Shown one piece after another: positions 928-17,448 of a stretch of 23,778 nucleotides of DNA; positions within the stretch are counted from its first letter, which is position 1, and the number at the start of each line of letters is the position of its first letter. The DNA is from Candidatus Bathyarchaeum sp. (lineage in GTDB: Archaea; Thermoproteota; Bathyarchaeia; Bathyarchaeales; Bathyarchaeaceae). Location: contig JAOZIF010000153.1 of the NCBI GenBank assembly GCA_026014495.1, positions 9,681-33,458 on the forward strand, given 5' to 3'. The notes beneath the pieces are model-generated. The model was not told the DNA's origin and made no database searches. It saw nothing but the letters and a program-made list of their open reading frames with translations. Both the position numbers and the translations under genes were made by a program.

Positions 928-3900
928 TTATTCGTTTGCGCCTTCTAGTATGCCTTCGGTTTCTAGGTAGAGTTTTTGGAGTTCTTTTTTCATTTCGTCT
1001 GTTGCGTTCCATAGGTTGCGTTCTATTGTTTCTAGGAGCCGTTCAACCATGTTTTGTAAAGCGTAAGGATTAACCTCTTTTAGCCACTCCTGCATCTTCT
1101 TGTCCAAAACATACTTGTTGGCAAGGTCTTCGTACATCCAGTCCTCAACAACCTCAACCGTAGCATCCCAGCCCATAACATCATCAAGAGTCTTAGAAAG
1201 CGTAGAAGCCCCAGCATAGCCATGACGCACCAAACTGCTAATCCACTTGGGATTAAGAAGGCGCGTACGAAAAACATGGCACGTCTCCTCTGCAGTGCTT
1301 CGAACTTTAACTCTGTCAGGGTCAGAACTATCACCACAATAAGACCGAGGCGCCTTCCCAGTTAAAGTCTTAACAGAAACAATCATGCCACCATGAGCAT
1401 CATACCAGTCATCACAGTCAAGTATGTCAAATTCACGCGAATCCTGATTCTTCACAGTCGCCTCAATCTCACAAAGACGAGCCTTAAACCGCTCAGGAAC
1501 CGAACTACCATAAACCTTACGGCTGTAAGCATAGCTGCCCCACGCAATGTAGATGTCACTCAAATCCTGTTGAGTTTCCCAATTCTTAGAACTCACCAAC
1601 TCACTAACCCCACAGCCATAAGCCCCCGGACGATCACCAAAAACCCTGTAATGAGCCTCATCACGCGCCTGCTCCGCGTCAACACCCTCAGCAACACGCT
1701 CACTAACCTCCTTCTCCACATGCTTTCTCACAAAATTTTGGTCTGAACTCTCATCCAAACCAGCAACCAAAGCCACAGCCTCATCAATAAGATGCACAAT
1801 ATTCGGAAAAGTATCCCTAAACAAGCCACTAATACGAACAGTAACATCAATACGCGGACGCTTCAACTCCTCAAGCGAAATAGCCTCAACACCAACAACA
1901 CGACCACTCGACTCCTCCCACACAGGCCTAACACCCATCAAATACAAAATCTCAGCAAAATCATCACCCTTAGTCTTCATCGTATCCGTAGCCCACAAAA
2001 TAGCACCCACACTCTCAGGATACTTGCCATCCTCCTTCAAGTAACGCTCCAACAAACTATCAGTCAAAGCAACACCCACACGCCAAGAAGCAGTCGAAGG
2101 CACAGCCCGAGGGTCCACAGAATAAAAGTTTCTACCCGTAGGCAAAATATCAGCCATACCCCTTGTCATAGAACCTGAAGGACCAGGAGGAACAAAGCAG
2201 CCTTCACAAGACGCCATAACATTGTCTAACTCATCTGTAGTCTTCGCCAAAGCAGGCACCAAAAAACCAGACACATACAACAAACACTGCCTCACACTAG
2301 AACTACCACAACCAAGCACACCCTCAATAACCTCATCAACAGCACAATCCACAAAACCCCTAGCATTAAACTGCCTAATCAACTCCAAAGCAATACCATT
2401 CATTTCCTTGATTACATCACCATTTGTCCGCCCATCAGACCGCAACTTCCCCTTATTCGCAACCAAATCCTCATAATCATAACCCTTCAACTCAGCAAGA
2501 GAACGCCTCAAAGAAGGCACAGACCCATTATCCAAACGCGTCAAAGTAACCAAAAACTCTTCAAGACGCTCATCAACTGGCGGCTGACCCAACGTATGCA
2601 AACCATCACGAAGCTGAGCATCCGACAAATCATGCAAATAAGCATGCAAACGCTCTAAGAAGCCATCAAAATCAGCAAAAACATCCTCTTTGGTAACTTG
2701 AAGGTCTTGGTCCAGCTTACCAGAAACTACAGTTTCCCAAATCACATTCTGCAAAACAGGCAACTTTCCCTCATCAACAAGCTTTGTATGATAATAGTCC
2801 TGCAACAAAACCTCAAGCTCCGCCAACTCCTCATACGTGTCAGCATTATGCATAACTGGAATTAAGTAATCAACAATGCAACAGTAACTGCGACGCTTAG
2901 ATTGCGTACCCTCCCCAGGGTTTGTAATAACGTAAGGATACACATTAGGCAAATCAGAAATCGCCACATCAGGAAAACAAGACCCAGAAAGCCCAACAGA
3001 CTTACCCGGCAACCACTCCAAACTACCATGCGTCCCAACATGAATCACAACATCAGCCTTAAACACATCCCGAATCCAACGATAATAACCATAATAATGA
3101 TGCGACAAAGAAAGATCAGGACTATGAAGACTAGCCGAATCATCCCCCAAAGAACCACGCGGAGGCTGAATACCCATGAAAACGTTCCCGTTAATCACGC
3201 CAGGAACAATCAAACTATTGTTGTAACAAAAAAGCTTACCAGGCGGACAGCCCCACTTCCCCTCCATCTTTTCGCGAGCATCAGACGGCAACTCACCAAA
3301 CCATTCAGCATACTGTTTACACGAAGTTTTACCCACAGCCCGTTTTGCAAGCTCTTCAGTACTCAACCAACGCAAATCATTAGTCAAACCGTTAATTATT
3401 CCATCTATAAGCTCCTGACCGCTTTCAGGCAAACTGTCTAAACTGTAGCCAGCAACTTTCATGTTCTTTAGCAAATTCAAAACAGAAACGGGAGTATCAA
3501 TTGCAAAAGCTTTACCGATAGTGTCATTTCGCGGAGGATAATTATGAAAAATTATTGCTACCTTTCGCTCACTGTTTACAACATGTTTTAGTTTCGCCCA
3601 ATTTATGCTCAACCGAGCCACTTTATCAACCCGTTCAGGAATCGGCTCAAAAGCAAGTATCTTAGTTCCCGTCAAAGGATTAATTTTAGTGGAACCCATC
3701 GCAGCCATAGGCACACTAATAAGAAAACCATCAAACTCAGGCATAACAACGCTAGCAGGTATGTCAATAAAACTAAGACCCTGCATAGTATCGCGCCAAT
3801 CTTCAAAACTGTTAACGGTTGTAATCGCCTTTATGACTGGAACACCTAACGTGCTCAAAGCCTCCAAAGCCTTACTACTAGAAGAAGTCAACGAAAAACA

Positions 3901-4623
3901 CATAACACTCACCACAGAATCCACAACAGGCTTTCCATCCTTCATAAAATAGGCCTCAACAACCTGACTCAAATTACCACCAAAAGAAACAGCAACAACA
4001 TTCACACCCCTACACTCAATCGCCCTGACCAAACTGTCAACAAAACTGGTATTCTCGCCACGCAACTGACTAACATGAAACAAAATCCCTACAGTCGAAC
4101 GACCAGACACAACCTTCAGTTCAGAATACTCATCCAACCCAAAAATTCTGTCAAAATCAGGATGATACACACCCTCCCACTGAATTTTCTCAGGAGGACA
4201 CACATCATAACATGAACCAGTAAAACGATTAGCCAAATACAACAAAAGATTCTCAAAATTCATTTTTCCACCATACATAAGATACCTCAAAATCCTCTGC
4301 TTATCCTTCGGCTCAACAGTACACACACTAGGCTGATCCTTATTTGGAGAAACAACCAACATCGGAACATTAACACTCCTCAAAGACGACACAAAAACAT
4401 CATACGCCTGAAACGTACCCATCAAATGCACAACAGCCACATGAGACTTTTTAGCAAACCGAATAAACTCATCCATCCCATCAAAATCTTGAGAAGAAAT
4501 ACCCACCTTAACACGCACATCCAATATGTCACCAAATTTTTGGTTCAAAGACGTAACAGCCGAAATAAGAGGCGCTGCATCAGTTATCATAGTCGCAACA
4601 AAAGCTAGCTTAAGTTTAGCCAT
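928..4623 (-). CDS. cobN: CobN/magnesium-chelatase H family large subunit (cobaltochelatase CobN-like)
   Basis: 1231 aa with family motifs HNYPP, HVGTHGSLEWLPGK, LPTGRNFYS, RPRIDV, RISGLFRD; divergent from cobD-cbiB. Confidence 0.93.
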   Translation of the reverse strand: MAKLKLAFVATMITDAAPLISAVTSLNQKFGDILDVRVKVGISSQDFDGMDEFIRFAKKSHVAVVHLMGTFQAYDVFVSSLRSVNVPMLVVSPNKDQPSVCTVEPKDKQRILRYLMYGGKMNFENLLLYLANRFTGSCYDVCPPEKIQWEGVYHPDFDRIFGLDEYSELKVVSGRSTVGILFHVSQLRGENTSFVDSLVRAIECRGVNVVAVSFGGNLSQVVEAYFMKDGKPVVDSVVSVMCFSLTSSSSKALEALSTLGVPVIKAITTVNSFEDWRDTMQGLSFIDIPASVVMPEFDGFLISVPMAAMGSTKINPLTGTKILAFEPIPERVDKVARLSINWAKLKHVVNSERKVAIIFHNYPPRNDTIGKAFAIDTPVSVLNLLKNMKVAGYSLDSLPESGQELIDGIINGLTNDLRWLSTEELAKRAVGKTSCKQYAEWFGELPSDAREKMEGKWGCPPGKLFCYNNSLIVPGVINGNVFMGIQPPRGSLGDDSASLHSPDLSLSHHYYGYYRWIRDVFKADVVIHVGTHGSLEWLPGKSVGLSGSCFPDVAISDLPNVYPYVITNPGEGTQSKRRSYCCIVDYLIPVMHNADTYEELAELEVLLQDYYHTKLVDEGKLPVLQNVIWETVVSGKLDQDLQVTKEDVFADFDGFLERLHAYLHDLSDAQLRDGLHTLGQPPVDERLEEFLVTLTRLDNGSVPSLRRSLAELKGYDYEDLVANKGKLRSDGRTNGDVIKEMNGIALELIRQFNARGFVDCAVDEVIEGVLGCGSSSVRQCLLYVSGFLVPALAKTTDELDNVMASCEGCFVPPGPSGSMTRGMADILPTGRNFYSVDPRAVPSTASWRVGVALTDSLLERYLKEDGKYPESVGAILWATDTMKTKGDDFAEILYLMGVRPVWEESSGRVVGVEAISLEELKRPRIDVTVRISGLFRDTFPNIVHLIDEAVALVAGLDESSDQNFVRKHVEKEVSERVAEGVDAEQARDEAHYRVFGDRPGAYGCGVSELVSSKNWETQQDLSDIYIAWGSYAYSRKVYGSSVPERFKARLCEIEATVKNQDSREFDILDCDDWYDAHGGMIVSVKTLTGKAPRSYCGDSSDPDRVKVRSTAEETCHVFRTRLLNPKWISSLVRHGYAGASTLSKTLDDVMGWDATVEVVEDWMYEDLANKYVLDKKMQEWLKEVNPYALQNMVERLLETIERNLWNATDEMKKELQKLYLETEGILEGANE

Positions 4624-4662
4624 ATTCTTTCAACTCTATTTTCAATGTACCTTCACACAATT

Positions 4663-4681
4663 TGGATGGAGTATCCATCCA
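4663..4681. promoter_or_regulatory. Candidate operator, palindrome TGGATGGA-gta-TCCATCCA, cobN promoter
   Basis: Perfect 8-bp arms, 40 bp upstream of the cobN ATG and just downstream (on -) of TATA-like TTATAT at 4687-4692. Second copy at 4862-4880. Confidence 0.8.
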
Positions 4682-4708
4682 TTGACATATAACAGTTGAG
4701 TTAAATCA

Positions 4709-4728
4709 AGTTGAACACGAGTTGAACA
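4709..4728. promoter_or_regulatory. Direct repeat AGTTGAACA x2 (11-bp period), possible second binding site
   Basis: 4709-4717 and 4720-4728 are identical; partial AGTTGA at 4694-4699; upstream of the cobN TATA-like box. Confidence 0.35.
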
Positions 4729-4861
4729 ATACATTCTTGTCTTCGAATAGAAGGCGAGCTGTCGTGGATTTGAATGATTACAGAAACGTTATTTCACAAG
4801 TGAACAAATTGCAGACCAAATAGCGCTTAATGCGTTTTCAAACTGCAAAGCATTAAAAACA

Positions 4862-4880
4862 TGGATGGACAATCCATCCA
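4862..4880. promoter_or_regulatory. Candidate operator, palindrome TGGATGGA-caa-TCCATCCA, cobD-cbiB promoter
   Basis: Perfect 8-bp arms identical to 4663-4681; sits 4 bp upstream of TATA-like TTTATA (4885-4890), over the expected BRE position. Confidence 0.8.
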
Positions 4881-4969
4881 AATATTTATACTGTAGCCAG
4901 TGTAACGATAAACATCATAGAAACAAAACGATTGATAACAGGTCCAAAAAACTGAAAGGTGAACTAAAC

Positions 4970-6106
4970 GTGAGATCGACATGGGAACTAGCAAGAGACA
5001 GCATCAAATCTCTCAAACCCTGTGTGCATGGAGGAGAAGTGTGGAATGCAGAAAAAAAGGTCAGTTATAATAGAAACGAAATTGTGGATTTTAGTTCAAG
5101 TATCAATCCTTTAGGGCCATCCCAAAAAGCGCTTGAAGCTATAGGAAAAAATCTTGGCAGTATTCAGATTTATCCTGATTCAAATTCTGAATGGCTACGA
5201 GAAGCGATTGCAACCAGTTTTGGGGAAATTGGCTCAAACAATGTAATTGTAGGCAATGGTTCGACAGAACTCATTTACTTATTTGCCGAGACATTTTTAG
5301 AGAAGGGTGAAATGGCATTGATACCTGCACCCACGTTTGGTGAATATGAGAAAGCAGTAAAAAAGGCAGGAGGTGAACCAAGACACATAAAGATGACACG
5401 GAATTTGGGTGTTGAGCCAAACATCTTCACGCGCCAAATCAAGGATGCAAAGATAGTATTTTTATGTAACCCGAACAACCCCACGAGCGCTCTTATTCCC
5501 CATGATACGCTGATTAAGATAATTGAAGATGCCCTCAAACATGATGTTCTTCTTTTTCTTGACGAGGATTTTTTGGAATTTGTTGATGAAGGAAAACAAG
5601 TTTCATTAGTAGACAAAATAAGTGAATTCCCCAACCTTTTTGTTTTACGCTCATTCACAAAGGTTTTTGGATTAACAGGACTTAGAATAGGATATGGAAT
5701 AGCTTCTGAAGACACAATTGAAATCCTTTCAAATGCTAAGACACCATGGAACGTTAACTGCTTGGCTCAGGTTGCAGCTTTGGCATCGTTAGCTGATAAA
5801 GAGCATATAAAAAAAAGCAGTCAAGTGGTCAAAACTGAGCGAGCGTTTTTGACTCAAGAAATAGCACAACTGAAATGCTTCAGTCAATATCCAGCCGATG
5901 CAAACTTTATTTTAATAAACATCAAAAAGTCAGGTTTTACTGCAGCACAACTCAAAGAAAAGATGTTACAACAGGGCATTCTGATTCGGGACTGCAGTTC
6001 TTTCAAGGGACTTGACGAGCATCATATTCGGGTAGCAGTTAAATCGCGTCAAGAAAATGAAAGGTTGCTTGAAGCTTTTAGAAAAAATTTGGGAATTAAA
6101 ACATAA
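4970..6106 (+). CDS. cobD: L-threonine-O-3-phosphate decarboxylase (PLP-dependent, aminotransferase class I/II fold)
   Basis: Motifs HGG, DFSSSINPLGP, CNPNNPT, RSFTKVFGLTGLRIGY; directly upstream of cbiB. Start moved from 4865 to GTG 4970 (SD AGGTGA at 4957-4962) because ATG 4865 lies inside the promoter palindrome. HisC-like activity is not excluded. Confidence 0.82.
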   Translation: MRSTWELARDSIKSLKPCVHGGEVWNAEKKVSYNRNEIVDFSSSINPLGPSQKALEAIGKNLGSIQIYPDSNSEWLREAIATSFGEIGSNNVIVGNGSTELIYLFAETFLEKGEMALIPAPTFGEYEKAVKKAGGEPRHIKMTRNLGVEPNIFTRQIKDAKIVFLCNPNNPTSALIPHDTLIKIIEDALKHDVLLFLDEDFLEFVDEGKQVSLVDKISEFPNLFVLRSFTKVFGLTGLRIGYGIASEDTIEILSNAKTPWNVNCLAQVAALASLADKEHIKKSSQVVKTERAFLTQEIAQLKCFSQYPADANFILINIKKSGFTAAQLKEKMLQQGILIRDCSSFKGLDEHHIRVAVKSRQENERLLEAFRKNLGIKT

Positions 6107-6120
6107 AAATTGGACGAAAA

Positions 6121-7086
6121 ATGTTCACAATAAACGTCTCTTTAGTTTTGGATTCGTTGCTCATATTTTGTTTAGCATTTCTTATCGACTACACGTTTGG
6201 TGAACTCCCAGACAGATTTCATCCAACACTATGGATGGGAAAGATTACAGATTATCTAAAACCCAAGTTCAGAAATAAAAATTCAAAAAATGAAAAAATA
6301 AATGGTATCCTTCTTTGTTTATTGGTTGCAACAATGTTTGTAGTTCCTACAAGCTTGGCGCTGTTTTGGATTCATGAATTGCTTGGCTGGTTACCGTACA
6401 TTGTTGCTTCTGCTATTGTGTTGCAGACTACATTTGCCATCAAATGCATGAAACAGTATACTCTGCCTGTTGCAAAAGCAGTGGAAAATAAAGATTACGA
6501 CAGAGCTAAGCAACTGTTGCCATTCATTGTAAGACGCAACCCAGACAAACTGACTGAAAGGCACATAATTTCTGCCACTGTTGAAACAATAGCTGAAGGA
6601 ACAACCGATGGTATAACTTCACCCTTTTTTTACTTCGCACTGTTTGGGGTTTCAGGTGCAGTTGCTTTCAGGGTCATCAATACGTTGGACTCGATGGTAG
6701 GATACAAGGACCCTGCAAACATCAACATCGGCTGGTTTTCAGCAAAAATGGATACAATAACCAATTACATTCCCGCAAGACTAACGGCAATATTGATGAT
6801 ATTAGCGGCATTAATTTTAAGAGAAAACTGGAGGAAAGCATGGAAGATTCTGCAAAGAGACAGAAAAAACACAGTAAGCCCTAATGCAGGATGGACAATT
6901 TCAACCATGGCTGGAGCATTAAACATTAGACTAGAAAAACCATCAGCTTACATAATAGGAGACAATAACAACTTGTCGCCAGCACATGTGAAAAAAGCTT
7001 TGCAAATAATGGTTTTAGCAGCAATACTTTTTGGAATCTTGATATTGTTCCCGATACTAATTCTAAAAGCAGTAATAATCATTTGA
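6121..7086 (+). CDS. cbiB: Adenosylcobinamide-phosphate synthase
   Basis: Hydrophobic 321 aa with GELP...HP, AE.TTDG, NTLDSMVGY, NYIPARL, SPNAGW, MAGAL motifs; 14 bp after cobD. Confidence 0.93.
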   Translation: MFTINVSLVLDSLLIFCLAFLIDYTFGELPDRFHPTLWMGKITDYLKPKFRNKNSKNEKINGILLCLLVATMFVVPTSLALFWIHELLGWLPYIVASAIVLQTTFAIKCMKQYTLPVAKAVENKDYDRAKQLLPFIVRRNPDKLTERHIISATVETIAEGTTDGITSPFFYFALFGVSGAVAFRVINTLDSMVGYKDPANINIGWFSAKMDTITNYIPARLTAILMILAALILRENWRKAWKILQRDRKNTVSPNAGWTISTMAGALNIRLEKPSAYIIGDNNNLSPAHVKKALQIMVLAAILFGILILFPILILKAVIII

Positions 7087-7234: not shown

Positions 7235-8311
7235 ATGATTAGTCAATTAAAGGAACAAATCAAAAAGCAGCTTGACCGAATGAATAATCCCTCTTTTTTG
7301 CAGTTTGCCATCTTCTTTGCAGCTTTTGTTGTGCCAGTGCTGGCGCTCTACATCAGGGATGCGAGCATGAATGCAGACTCCTTTGATTACCTTTGGAAAG
7401 GCAGAGCACCATATTTTCTCTTTTTATGGTTGCTAGTCTTAGAGGCTGCGCTTGGATGGAAAAAACTCAAAACTGAGCAGACTTTAGTCTGGACTAAAAA
7501 AACAGTTTTAGTAGCAGTAACCTTGATTCTGCCGACCATATATGCAGTGGGTTTGAACTTCGGGTTGTATGATGGTATTGTAGAGCTTGGAAAAGCTGTT
7601 GGCGTACCCGTTGAACAATATGGCGAATGGTACTTAACGCATTCTTGGCCATTCTCGTTTGAATATGTTCTTTTTGCATTGCTTTTTGTAACTTCAATTT
7701 GGCTCATGTACAAAAAGCAGGGACTGAAACTCTTTGCTGTATCCTCATTTTTCATCGGGGGCGTTGGCATATTCTACATGATTGACACATTCTATCCTTA
7801 CGGAACATTTACAGTTTTACAGGCTTTTGTTCCAGTTACTGTCTCTGGAGCAGTTCTTATACTGAACATTTTGGGTTACGGAACCAGAACATTCTCGGGA
7901 GGTGGAGATGGACTAGGACTCACGGTGACTGGAGCAAACAGCAGTTACTCTGCAATTGTATCATGGTCTTGTGCAGGAAGCCATAGTCTCTTTTTGTACT
8001 CATTTATGATAATGCTTTTTCTTAGGGGCACAAGCATATCGCGCACAAGAAAAATAATTTATGTTCTTGTGGGAGCGGCGGGAACCTTTTTTGTTAATAT
8101 TCTCCGAATTGTAGCGATTCTTTTAGCAGGAGTCAACAGCGGAGCCTCATTAGCAGCAACATTTCACGAATTTTATGGAGAATTCTTTTTCATCGCATGG
8201 ATGTTCATTTATCTGTCCATTATCTTCCTCGTTGAAACGCGTGTCATCAACAAAAAAGACGGCAAAGAGGAACCCATCGAAAAACACAGTGATGAATCAC
8301 AGTTTGGTTAA
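7235..8311 (+). CDS. Exosortase/archaeosortase family membrane transpeptidase (thaumarchaeosortase-like, Cys nucleophile)
   Basis: Multi-TM protein with WSCAG (Cys246, 7970), NILRI (Arg291, 8105) and FHEFYG (His311, 8165), matching the family Cys-Arg-His triad order. Confidence 0.85.
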   Translation: MISQLKEQIKKQLDRMNNPSFLQFAIFFAAFVVPVLALYIRDASMNADSFDYLWKGRAPYFLFLWLLVLEAALGWKKLKTEQTLVWTKKTVLVAVTLILPTIYAVGLNFGLYDGIVELGKAVGVPVEQYGEWYLTHSWPFSFEYVLFALLFVTSIWLMYKKQGLKLFAVSSFFIGGVGIFYMIDTFYPYGTFTVLQAFVPVTVSGAVLILNILGYGTRTFSGGGDGLGLTVTGANSSYSAIVSWSCAGSHSLFLYSFMIMLFLRGTSISRTRKIIYVLVGAAGTFFVNILRIVAILLAGVNSGASLAATFHEFYGEFFFIAWMFIYLSIIFLVETRVINKKDGKEEPIEKHSDESQFG

Positions 8312-9814: not shown

Positions 9815-10834
9815 TCACATTTTTTGGCTAGATTGTTTATCTTGACTTTTTTCTGTTAACCCAGTGGTTTTCAAACCGAGTTGAAGATTTTGGCGACCAG
9901 TTTTTGTTAAGCTGTAGTTATGAAGCATCTCCAAGTTTGCAGTTTCGAGGTTGAATTTTGCGGTGCATTTTGAACATGCAAAGCTGAAGTTGGGTTGACC
10001 GAAAAAGTGATTGTTTGAGCATCTGTACCAGTTTTCTATTTTCCGGTAGTCAACACCGATTACTTTCAGTTTTTTTCCACATTTTGGACAGACAAGACTG
10101 CCTTCACCTTTGCTGAACTTGGTTCTGAAGTCAATGTTGCCACAATCGAAGTGTTCTAGGGCTTCTTCTTTTGTCATTTTTGTGCTTTCACATTCGGGGC
10201 ACTCAATGTAGAGAGTAGATGTTAGAGATTCGCAGTCGGGACAGGTAATTACTGAGCGTGATGGTTCTGCGTTTACTATGTCGAGTTCTGTAAGTGTTTT
10301 TAGTGTTGCAACAAGTTCTTCTGTGGGAATTTCGGTTTTTGGATTAGATGTTAAGGTACTGATGGAGTCTATTCGCACGATTGGGTTTTTATTAAATAGG
10401 GTTACGAGGGCTTTTGCTGTTTCAAGGTTTATTGTTTCAGGCAGAGACGATTCTAGCAGGATGTCTGTGATGCTGTCAATTAGACGCTGTGATTTGACCT
10501 CTTCTTTTATTATGTAGTCTCGGACGCCAAGTTTCATAGCTTCTACTGCTATGTTTTCGTTTCCTTTTCCAGTGAGTAAAATGATTGGCGCTTTGTTACC
10601 CGTCTTTTTTAGTTGTCGAACAAAATCGATGCCTGTCATGTCTGGTAATCTGTAGTCCATAAGGATCAGGTCGAAGTCTTCTTTTTGAATTTTAGCTAAT
10701 CCTTTTGTTGCAGTGTCGACAATTACTAAATCATAATTGATTGAAAGCTTTTCTTTCAATGATCGCTTCAGAATAAGTTGGTCGTCTGGGTTGTCTTCAA
10801 TATACAATATTCGTATTTTCAAGTCACTCAACAT
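9815..10834 (-). CDS. Response regulator with Cys-rich Zn-ribbon output domain (REC-TackOD1 type)
   Basis: REC motifs IEDN, LMDYRLPD, LTG, YIIK; C-terminal CPDC, CPEC, EHFDCG, CPKC, IGVDYRK, CSKC. Start moved to ATG 10834 (GAGG upstream) to avoid overlap with the upstream gene. Confidence 0.85.
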   Translation of the reverse strand: MLSDLKIRILYIEDNPDDQLILKRSLKEKLSINYDLVIVDTATKGLAKIQKEDFDLILMDYRLPDMTGIDFVRQLKKTGNKAPIILLTGKGNENIAVEAMKLGVRDYIIKEEVKSQRLIDSITDILLESSLPETINLETAKALVTLFNKNPIVRIDSISTLTSNPKTEIPTEELVATLKTLTELDIVNAEPSRSVITCPDCESLTSTLYIECPECESTKMTKEEALEHFDCGNIDFRTKFSKGEGSLVCPKCGKKLKVIGVDYRKIENWYRCSNNHFFGQPNFSFACSKCTAKFNLETANLEMLHNYSLTKTGRQNLQLGLKTTGLTEKSQDKQSSQKM

Positions 10835-10848
10835 TAATTCCTCATAGT

Positions 10849-11289
10849 TCACGGTATTTTTGAGAGCGTTAACCAATAACGCTTAATTTCCATTACAGCT
10901 TCAACAAAGTCTTCAAACGCAGCAGGTTTTACGATAAAACTATTTGCCCCGAGTTTGTAGGCAAGATCAATATCTTCGGTTCTACTCGAAGAAGTCAACA
11001 CTATTATGGGGACACTCTTTAAATTTTCATCACCTTTTATTGTTTTCAAAACTTCAAAACCATCAACTTTAGGCATGTTCAAATCTAATATAACCAATCC
11101 AGAGGCAGGAACATCTTTGTAATCGCCTTCTTTACGTAAGAATTGAATGGCTTTTTCTCCATCGTCAGTCACATATACCTTGTTTCGAATATCGCATTTG
11201 CTAAACGCCCTTTTTGCGATCATCACGTCATCGGGGTTGTCGTCCACCAAAAGAATTGGGCGTTCACTCATTGCAGCTTTATTTTTCAA
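10849..11289 (-). CDS. Single-domain response regulator (Rcp1-like)
   Basis: LLVDDNPDD, LDLNMPKVDG, LTSS, GANSFIVKP. TTG start with AGGAG upstream; ATG 11271 is an alternative. Confidence 0.92.
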   Translation of the reverse strand: MKNKAAMSERPILLVDDNPDDVMIAKRAFSKCDIRNKVYVTDDGEKAIQFLRKEGDYKDVPASGLVILDLNMPKVDGFEVLKTIKGDENLKSVPIIVLTSSSRTEDIDLAYKLGANSFIVKPAAFEDFVEAVMEIKRYWLTLSKIP

Positions 11290-16473: not shown

Positions 16474-17448
16474 ATGGAGCAAAAAACGATGGCAGACCTT
16501 GAAGTATTAAAAAAAGAAGGCAACGACTTTATCGTAAAAGTGCCTGAAAGAGAAGACCCCGTAAAAATAGATGACACTTTCGCCGAAATGTTCCCCATGT
16601 GGGCAGGCAGAATACTGATAACTGCCGCAAACGAAAAATGGGCATTAATAGCAGCAAGAACCGCAAGCGGATTTGCATCTTCAATCATTATGTCCCCCGC
16701 AGAAGCTTCAGTAGAATGTTTAGTTTCAGCTAAAGACACCCCAGATGGACGCCCTGGAGCAATCATCCAAATCTACCACAGCTCAAGAGGTGAACTCAAA
16801 CACCAGATGAGCCTAAGAATTGGACAATGCATAATGACCTGCCCAACAACAGCAGCTTTTGATGCCCTACCCAAAGCAAAAAGAAGAGTCAAAATAGGCA
16901 GAAGCTTGCGCCTCTTCGGAGACGGTTTCCAAAAAAGCGGTGAAGTTGCTGGACGAAAAGTTTGGCGAATACCAGTCATGGAGGGCGAATTCTTAGTCGA
17001 AGACGACTTTGGAATAATGAAAGCTGTTGCCAGCGGAAACATGCTTATTTTAGCAAAAGACTGGAAATCAGCTCTTAAAGCAGCAGAGGATGCAAAAGAG
17101 GCAATCACCAAGAACGTTCGTGGCGTAATCATGCCATTCCCAGGTGGTCTTTGTAGAGCTGGATCAAAAGTTGGTTCACTAAATTACAAGCTTCCTGCAT
17201 CAACAAGTCATCAATACTGTCCCACAATCAAGATACTGGTGCCAGACTCTAAGCTTACAGACGACGTTAACAGCGTCTACGAGATTGTAATTAATGGTTT
17301 GAACCAAAAAGTTGTGAAAACTGCAATGGGAGTTGGAATAAAAGCTGCAATCAAAGTTCCCGGAGTTTTGAAGATTACTGCTGGAAATTATGGCGGCAAG
17401 CTTGGTCCATTCAAAGGAGTTCTAAAAGAAGTTTTGAATCTAGAGTAA
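16474..17448 (+). CDS. ftr: Formylmethanofuran:tetrahydromethanopterin N-formyltransferase
   Basis: IDDTFAEMF, GF.SSIIMSPAEA, TPDGRPG, RIGQCIMTCPTTA, GGLCRAGSKVGS, VYEIVING, ITAGNYGGKLG. Start could be ATG 16489. Confidence 0.95.
   Translation: MEQKTMADLEVLKKEGNDFIVKVPEREDPVKIDDTFAEMFPMWAGRILITAANEKWALIAARTASGFASSIIMSPAEASVECLVSAKDTPDGRPGAIIQIYHSSRGELKHQMSLRIGQCIMTCPTTAAFDALPKAKRRVKIGRSLRLFGDGFQKSGEVAGRKVWRIPVMEGEFLVEDDFGIMKAVASGNMLILAKDWKSALKAAEDAKEAITKNVRGVIMPFPGGLCRAGSKVGSLNYKLPASTSHQYCPTIKILVPDSKLTDDVNSVYEIVINGLNQKVVKTAMGVGIKAAIKVPGVLKITAGNYGGKLGPFKGVLKEVLNLE

Follow-up and report, generated by a model that had tools for sequence, protein, structure and literature searches.

Twin palindromes between cobN and cobD in a Candidatus Bathyarchaeum genome as likely operators of a protein-controlled cobalamin regulon

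A "CBL-box", the predicted signal of a hypothetical B12 regulator, was reportedly described for some archaea by Rodionov, Vitreschak, Mironov and Gelfand in 2003. To our knowledge, no archaeal B12-sensing regulator has been characterised so far. By its description the CBL-box resembles the element studied here: both are DNA signals ahead of genes for cobalamin synthesis and transport, in archaea that lack a B12 riboswitch, and both come from comparative genomics. The likeness to TGGATGGAT-W-ATCCATCCA, the refined consensus of our element (a 9-1-9 palindrome), is one of description, and the present case adds a candidate reader (DUF4443), a second element and DUF7839. For other vitamins, archaeal protein regulators are known: ThiR and RbkR act on thiamine and riboflavin genes via palindromic operators at the pathway promoters, and in these systems a DNA-binding protein replaces the bacterial vitamin riboswitch. 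The same replacement is predicted here, with other protein families, other operators and another vitamin. The bacterial cobalamin riboswitch (RF00174) regulons are similar in content (btuFCD, cob/cbi, cobalt chelatase and transport genes) and in their presumed B12 feedback, but RF00174 is an RNA leader, whereas the element here is predicted to act as DNA, next to the TATA box. Archaea make only sparing use of the known riboswitch classes (PMC5473149). Further parallels are TrmB and TrmBL1 (Tgr), with which the factor predicted here would share a winged-helix dimer, a short-spacer inverted repeat and an effect set by position relative to BRE and TATA box; on the other hand, the half-site (TATCAC-N5-GTGATA in the Thermococcales glycolytic motif), the protein family and the sugar sensing are different. 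TrmB of Halobacterium also controls cob/cbi genes (PMC3794607).

The window, i.e., the whole stretch of DNA analysed, comprises 23,778 nt (contig C59, positions 9681-33458) of a source genome of 2.19 Mb (G000). It contains two exact 19-bp copies of TGGATGGA-N3-TCCATCCA, at 4663-4681 and 4862-4880 as an earlier note on this DNA had described, and a third match is absent from the window even when up to three mismatches are allowed. Both copies are perfect 8-3-8 palindromes, an inverted repeat that suits a dimeric HTH protein. Aligned in inverted orientation together with their flanks they are identical at 21 of 23 bases; the inversion claimed in the earlier note thus stood, but its count of 20/23 had to be corrected. 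The features of the region and of its flanking genes are the following (window coordinates):

928-4623, minus strand: cobN, encoding a CobN/Mg-chelatase large subunit of 1231 aa (PF02514, E = 0), downstream of operator 1
4663-4681, unstranded: putative operator 1 (TGGATGGAGTATCCATCCA), with the TATA box of cobN on one side and the start codon of cobN on the other; PWM score 30.5 bits
4686-4693, minus strand: cobN promoter TATA-like box, reading GTTATATG on that strand; operator 1 is 4 nt away
4862-4880, unstranded: putative operator 2 (TGGATGGACAATCCATCCA), adjoining the upstream (BRE) side of the cobD TATA box; PWM score 30.5 bits
4883-4890, plus strand: TATA-like box TATTTATA of the cobD-cbiB promoter, quasi-symmetric and possibly bidirectional
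4970-6106, plus strand: cobD-type class I/II aminotransferase (threonine-phosphate decarboxylase-like), start inferred from sequence
6121-7086, plus strand: cbiB/cobD, adenosylcobinamide-phosphate synthase family (PF03186), second gene of the operon

The two TATA-like boxes (4686-4693 on the minus strand and 4883-4890) fit the placement proposed in the note, with copy 1 between the TATA box and the start of cobN and copy 2 at the BRE of cobD; operator 2 ends 2 nt before TATTTATA, upstream of cobD. The ATG of cobN is at 4623, and operator 1 is the predicted element by which this gene is controlled. The aminotransferase ORF as called from 4865 is probably over-extended, and its true start is likely the GTG at 4970, 3' of a GGTGA Shine-Dalgarno-like box. 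The 180-bp spacer between the operators contains no ORF, Rfam family or repeat. Since this spacer occurs only once in the genome, a MITE or terminal inverted repeat was rejected as an explanation of the pair. Elsewhere in the window, an exosortase/archaeosortase-like membrane protein is encoded directly 3' of cbiB (7235-8311 and 9815-11289 cover it and response regulators), two response-regulator genes lie nearby on the minus strand, one of them with a TackOD1 output domain, and a homologue of formylmethanofuran:H4MPT formyltransferase (Ftr) is found at 16474-17448.

Base composition predicts 0.0004 exact sites and 0.02 sites with at most one mismatch in 2.19 Mb, and two and six, respectively, were observed; among 100 shuffles of the window, only one gave two matches at up to three mismatches. 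A PWM was built from the sites of a first whole-genome scan and then rescanned over the genome, and the resulting scores were bimodal: eight sites scored 27-31 bits, and the next best scored 15.8. All eight sites are intergenic and lie beside a TATA-like box, and seven of them head cobalamin synthesis, uptake or regulator genes. The distribution is thus non-random, with the enrichment that the earlier note had named as support for a regulon. Besides the pair in the window, the sites are (contig coordinates in the source genome):

C59:7003 and C59:7242: a further twin pair, flanked by a ChlI/ChlD-type chelatase gene and by a wHTH-DUF7839/wHTH-DUF4443 operon
C108:7154: between a CobQ-like gene and hemA, with a cbiX-cbiC fusion after hemA
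C193:32657: precedes an importer of BtuF-like, FecCD and ABC proteins (btuFCD)
C120:1661: precedes a second CobN-type gene
C175:18669: ~280 nt before purS-purL

The second CobN-type product shares 29% identity with the window CobN over residues 4-109 of the latter, and its gene is incomplete at the contig end. The minus strand downstream of the ChlI/ChlD-VWA chelatase gene encodes a 1014-aa protein with three Peripla_BP_2 (BtuF-like) domains (locus L001, 1785-4829), and such a triple binding-protein fusion is unusual. The CobQ/CbiA-like protein of contig C108 (locus L002, 3387-4949, minus strand) has a swapped domain order, with GATase_3 at the N-terminus (residues 41-200) and the ATPase at the C-terminus (residues 259-445). 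The purS site appears to be the odd member, with no obvious fit to a B12 regulon: at this locus (L003, 5001-5297; C175:18669-18965) a strong operator, a TATA box and TTCAAC repeats stand ~280 nt before purS-purL, and the leader showed no noteworthy ORF, Rfam match, stable fold or conservation in the relative G015. A small RNA 3' of the operator was rejected here, as the sequence could not be aligned with the G015 locus and the fold z-score was -0.26.

We consider it likely, judging from these sequence patterns, that both palindromes of the cobN/cobD intergenic region serve as operators in a cobalamin regulon under protein control. Conservation was followed in 41 related genomes, ranging from the same genus to the same order, with a pattern that allowed up to two mismatches. 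The motif occurs in 40 of the 41 (1-13 copies per genome, against 0-2 for the reversed-pattern control). ORFs flanking the best site of each genome (n=30) include 13 of the Peripla_BP_2 (BtuF) type, and the other flanking ORFs in relatives encode, among others, CbiZ, an aminotransferase of the CobD type, a CobQ-like protein and an ECF S-component. Only five of the 41 relatives gave a close match to the N-terminus of CobN; CobN orthologs and paralogs in G005, G016 and G040 have operator sites upstream, and in the G005 ortholog both twin sites are weakened, with the TATA-side half-site and the TATA box exactly kept. The motif is present at orthologous cobN and cobD promoters, and its placement in the genome is non-random.

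The earlier note had seen no riboswitch-like leader in the region, and this was upheld by an Rfam scan of the window and an RF00174 scan of the genome, both of which came back empty: RF00174 gave zero matches in G000 at E <= 1, with the positive control found in nine bacterial genomes, and the Rfam scans of the window and of loci L001 and L003 revealed no RNA families. At the protein level, at least 15 B12-binding-domain proteins are encoded in the genome, and many B12-dependent radical SAM enzymes. CarH-like or DUF4430-type B12-binding regulators were not found in G000. The ORFs with B12-binding domains were rejected as CarH-like regulators, being mostly of 400-520 aa and in two cases small standalone domains, and a 262-aa candidate was discarded as well, its domain lying N-terminally in a longer ORF that runs off the contig, which leaves no space for an HTH ahead of it.

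We infer that a protein binds at the palindrome, and this protein is most likely a dimeric winged-helix regulator. Its gene had been placed outside the window by the earlier note; candidates were indeed found ~1.5 kb upstream of the window and on contig C73. They belong to the DUF4443/PH0730-type winged-helix proteins, and a member of this family is, in our estimate, rather probably the reader. The two DUF4443 copies of the source genome, i.e., the core gene (contig C73; locus L037, 1486-2142, minus strand) and the paralog linked to the chelatase gene (locus L001, 8137-8886, plus strand), encode products that are 47% identical and have in common the recognition-helix core T-R-T-x-L-K-H-L. The domain make-up is an N-terminal PH0730-like/CggR-like wHTH followed by a C-terminal DUF4443 domain (PF22167, PF21715, PF14544). 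By sequence, the candidate aligns over its whole length with PH0730 of Pyrococcus horikoshii (E = 1e-12; PDB 2P8T), which was deposited as a hypothetical protein, and the AlphaFold model (pLDDT 94.6) matches 2P8T with a TM-score of 0.69 (query-normalised) or 0.81 (target-normalised). The modelled wHTH resembles the operator-bound DNA-binding domain of CggR and superposes at 1.4 A on the N-terminal DNA-binding domain of CggR/SorC (PDB 7OYK). Where CggR carries its sugar-phosphate-binding SorC domain, DUF4443 has an alpha/beta domain of GAD-like type, which in the model resembles the GAD insertion domain of AspRS; a known corrinoid-binding fold was not evident in the modelled C-terminal domain. 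A search of the literature available to the analysis found no paper on DUF4443.

Several observations connect the family with the operator: i) DUF4443 (PF14544) is present in 40 of the 41 relatives; ii) almost all genomes of the phylum with at least three motif matches carry DUF4443; iii) in five DUF4443-less genomes with motif matches, 11 of the 12 matches lie inside ORFs and have neither a TATA box nor the T-W-A centre, and thus are chance matches; iv) in G000, G005, G016 and G017 the paralog's operon carries an operator, and in G011 a weak half-site; v) in G176 an operator stands between the core DUF4443 gene and a divergent, Pfam-confirmed gene of the ECF S-component type, an arrangement that G160 repeats by sequence only; and vi) a distant DUF4443 gene (32% identity) and cbtB-cbtA diverge from a region in which two TATA boxes enclose a perfect palindrome, TTGGATAA-T-TTATCCAA (TGGAT/ATCCA). 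The co-occurrence test suggested in the earlier note thus pointed to a family found in 40 of 41 relatives, but it discriminates weakly: in a phylum sample of 201 genomes the motif was present in 117 and DUF4443 in 166, motif-less families included.

Because the family is near-universal in the phylum, co-occurrence is weak evidence for DUF4443, and a somewhat unlikely alternative is that the B12-regulon operator is read by another transcription factor, DUF4443 being a widespread regulator with a different role. In keeping with that alternative, the core DUF4443 gene of G000 has neither an operator nor B12 neighbours, three of the four distant DUF4443 genes examined are in housekeeping contexts where motif and B12 context are absent, and in two genomes with good sites, G015 (89% complete) and G137 (96% complete), DUF4443 was not found. 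Yet operators adjoin DUF4443 genes in several genomes and genuine operators were not found in the five DUF4443-less genomes, and neither a DUF4430-type nor a CarH-like regulator was found in G000. DUF7839 (PF25211), encoded in the same operon as the paralog, was rejected as the general palindrome reader on phyletic grounds, since it is present in only six of the 41 relatives against 40 of 41 for the motif. We prefer DUF4443 as the reader; a DUF4443-type system would most likely be the archaeal counterpart that does the job of the bacterial B12 riboswitches.

A corrinoid would be the most likely signal, since the conserved core of the regulon in relatives consists of corrinoid uptake and salvage genes; we put its chances as effector at roughly even. 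A palindrome of a repressor that senses cobalt or another metal is unlikely. Two CobN-type chelatases and the ChlI/D chelatase in the regulon would suit a metal signal, and so would the distant DUF4443 gene, which is divergent from the predicted cobalt transporter genes cbtAB; however, the sites in the 35 relatives without a close CobN match mostly head BtuF-type proteins, CbiZ and the ECF S-component, i.e., corrinoid uptake and salvage functions that would logically be tuned to corrinoid supply, and hemA and cobD-cbiB stand for non-metal steps.

The distance from operator to TATA-like box is 2-6 nt at all eight sites of the genome, and the better-conserved half-site is the one that adjoins the TATA box. 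Two positions can be distinguished. At the first (TATA box, operator, gene start) are the operators of cobN, the ChlI/D chelatase, btuF, hemA, the second cobN and purS, so that the layout of operator 1 and the cobN TATA box is common to six unambiguous sites genome-wide. At the second, directly upstream of the TATA box and over the BRE, are those of cobD-cbiB, the regulator operon and the CobQ-like gene, the last with a shared TATA box. The starts of the CobQ-like gene and hemA (L002, 4988-5019; contig C108) are ~70 bp apart, and the single TATA-like box and single operator between them suggest a bidirectional promoter in which one TATA box would serve both genes. The ATG of hemA overlaps the end of the palindrome, and thus the hemA mRNA is probably leaderless.

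Read on the minus strand, operator 2 has the order of the six unambiguous sites (TATA box, 2 nt, operator), its better-kept half-site adjoins the TATA box, and this geometry is kept in G005 and G016. Operator 2 (4862-4880) might accordingly be thought to serve an upstream leftward promoter, directed towards cobN or a non-coding transcript, and not cobD. We regard this as improbable: the order operator, 2-4 nt, TATA box, 50-80 nt, cobD is seen again in G017 and, at 26.9 bits, in L094, a metagenomic contig of Bathyarchaeota, where the divergent gene is absent at the cobD-side operator, and the 180-bp spacer offers no ORF, Rfam family or repeat as a target. This recurrence, in L094 without a divergent gene, is what argues that the BRE-side position is real.

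The following course of events can be proposed. A corrinoid-loaded DUF4443 dimer would occupy the operator beside the TATA box; since the operators lie only 2-6 nt from the TATA box, the bound dimer would hinder the assembly of TFB or RNA polymerase and repress transcription; synthesis, uptake and the regulator operon would then be shut down together. As the mode of action, repression is quite probable on this geometry. The converse, that the factor activates at the BRE-side sites (cobD and the regulator operon) in the manner of position-dependent TrmBL1-type regulators, is very unlikely, for although archaeal regulators of the TrmBL1/Tgr type can activate when bound upstream of BRE and TATA box, the operator comes to within 2-4 nt of the TATA box and therefore overlaps the BRE instead of lying upstream of it, and opposite control of cobN and cobD-cbiB within one pathway would be hard to rationalise. 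TrmB, for its part, is both an activator and a repressor (PMC3794607).

A second cis-element accompanies some of the operators. In the window and elsewhere in the genome it is represented by:

4710-4726 (window), minus strand: direct repeat TTCAAC-tcgtg-TTCAAC with an 11-bp period, 16 nt upstream of the cobN TATA box
4695-4699 (window), minus strand: an extra TCAAC copy near the cobN repeat
C59:7050-7066, C120:1618-1634 and C175:18626-18642 (source genome, outside the window): TTCAAC-N5-TTCAAY copies

TTCAAY-N5-TTCAAY has only seven copies in the genome, and four of them are 43-45 nt before an operator, i.e., 15-17 nt upstream of the TATA box; these four belong to cobN, the ChlI/D chelatase, the second cobN and purS. 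The layout of repeat, TATA box and operator was also found at chelatase and cobN-type promoters of G016, G017 and G040, by a relaxed local scan that was needed because a strict composite pattern had low power in relatives and matched only G000 and G016. Moreover, each DUF7839 gene examined (those of G000, G005, G011, G016, G017 and G040, and of the metagenomic loci L092 and L094) has the repeat in mirror orientation (NYTAAA-N5-GTTGAA), placed after its TATA box and ahead of its start codon; in L093 three phased copies are found just before the DUF7839 gene.

In the source genome the wHTH-DUF7839 and wHTH-DUF4443 genes (L001, 7298-8886; contig C59, ~1.5 kb upstream of the window) share 4 nt (ATGA) and are organised as one operon, 3' of an operator; the DUF7839 gene occupies 7325-8140 of L001 on the plus strand. 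The pair of DUF7839 and the DUF4443 paralog occurs in G000, G005, G011, G016 and G017, and G040 has DUF7839 without the paralog. CobN and DUF7839 are found in nearly the same few genomes: CobN is present in all DUF7839 genomes (G000, G005, G016, G017 and G040) except G011. On other Bathyarchaeota contigs, DUF7839 homologues are divergent from cbiMNQO or follow a cbiD-cbiG operon. The mirror repeat at the DUF7839 genes, the cbiMNQO and cbiD-cbiG contexts and the co-distribution with CobN together indicate that the TTCAAC repeat is probably the binding site of DUF7839, which would be autoregulatory at its own start and act from upstream at the chelatase promoters.

The presence of the repeat both at chelatase promoters and at every DUF7839 gene start examined suggests two-input control. 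We offer, as a rather unlikely possibility, a protein-only two-input B12 switch in which DUF4443 with the palindrome and DUF7839 with the TTCAAC repeats flank single TATA boxes that may be bidirectional. A DUF4443 dimer would sense corrinoid status at the palindrome on the one side; on the other, DUF7839 would sense cobalt or a precursor at the 11-bp-phased TTCAAC repeats, autoregulating at its own start and tuning the cobN, ChlI/D and cbiMNQO promoters from upstream. New in the present case is that the two regulators are told apart, that a second element is described and that the repeat is linked to DUF7839.

The locus bears on how archaea tune an expensive cofactor pathway of roughly 30 genes to supply. 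It provides a testable kit, consisting of a 19-bp operator with eight genomic copies, two candidate proteins (DUF4443, with a solved relative in 2P8T, and DUF7839) and a second cis-element. Bathyarchaeia are abundant sediment organisms, and given their abundance and the many B12-dependent radical SAM enzymes, the switch bears on which members of a community make and which scavenge corrinoids.
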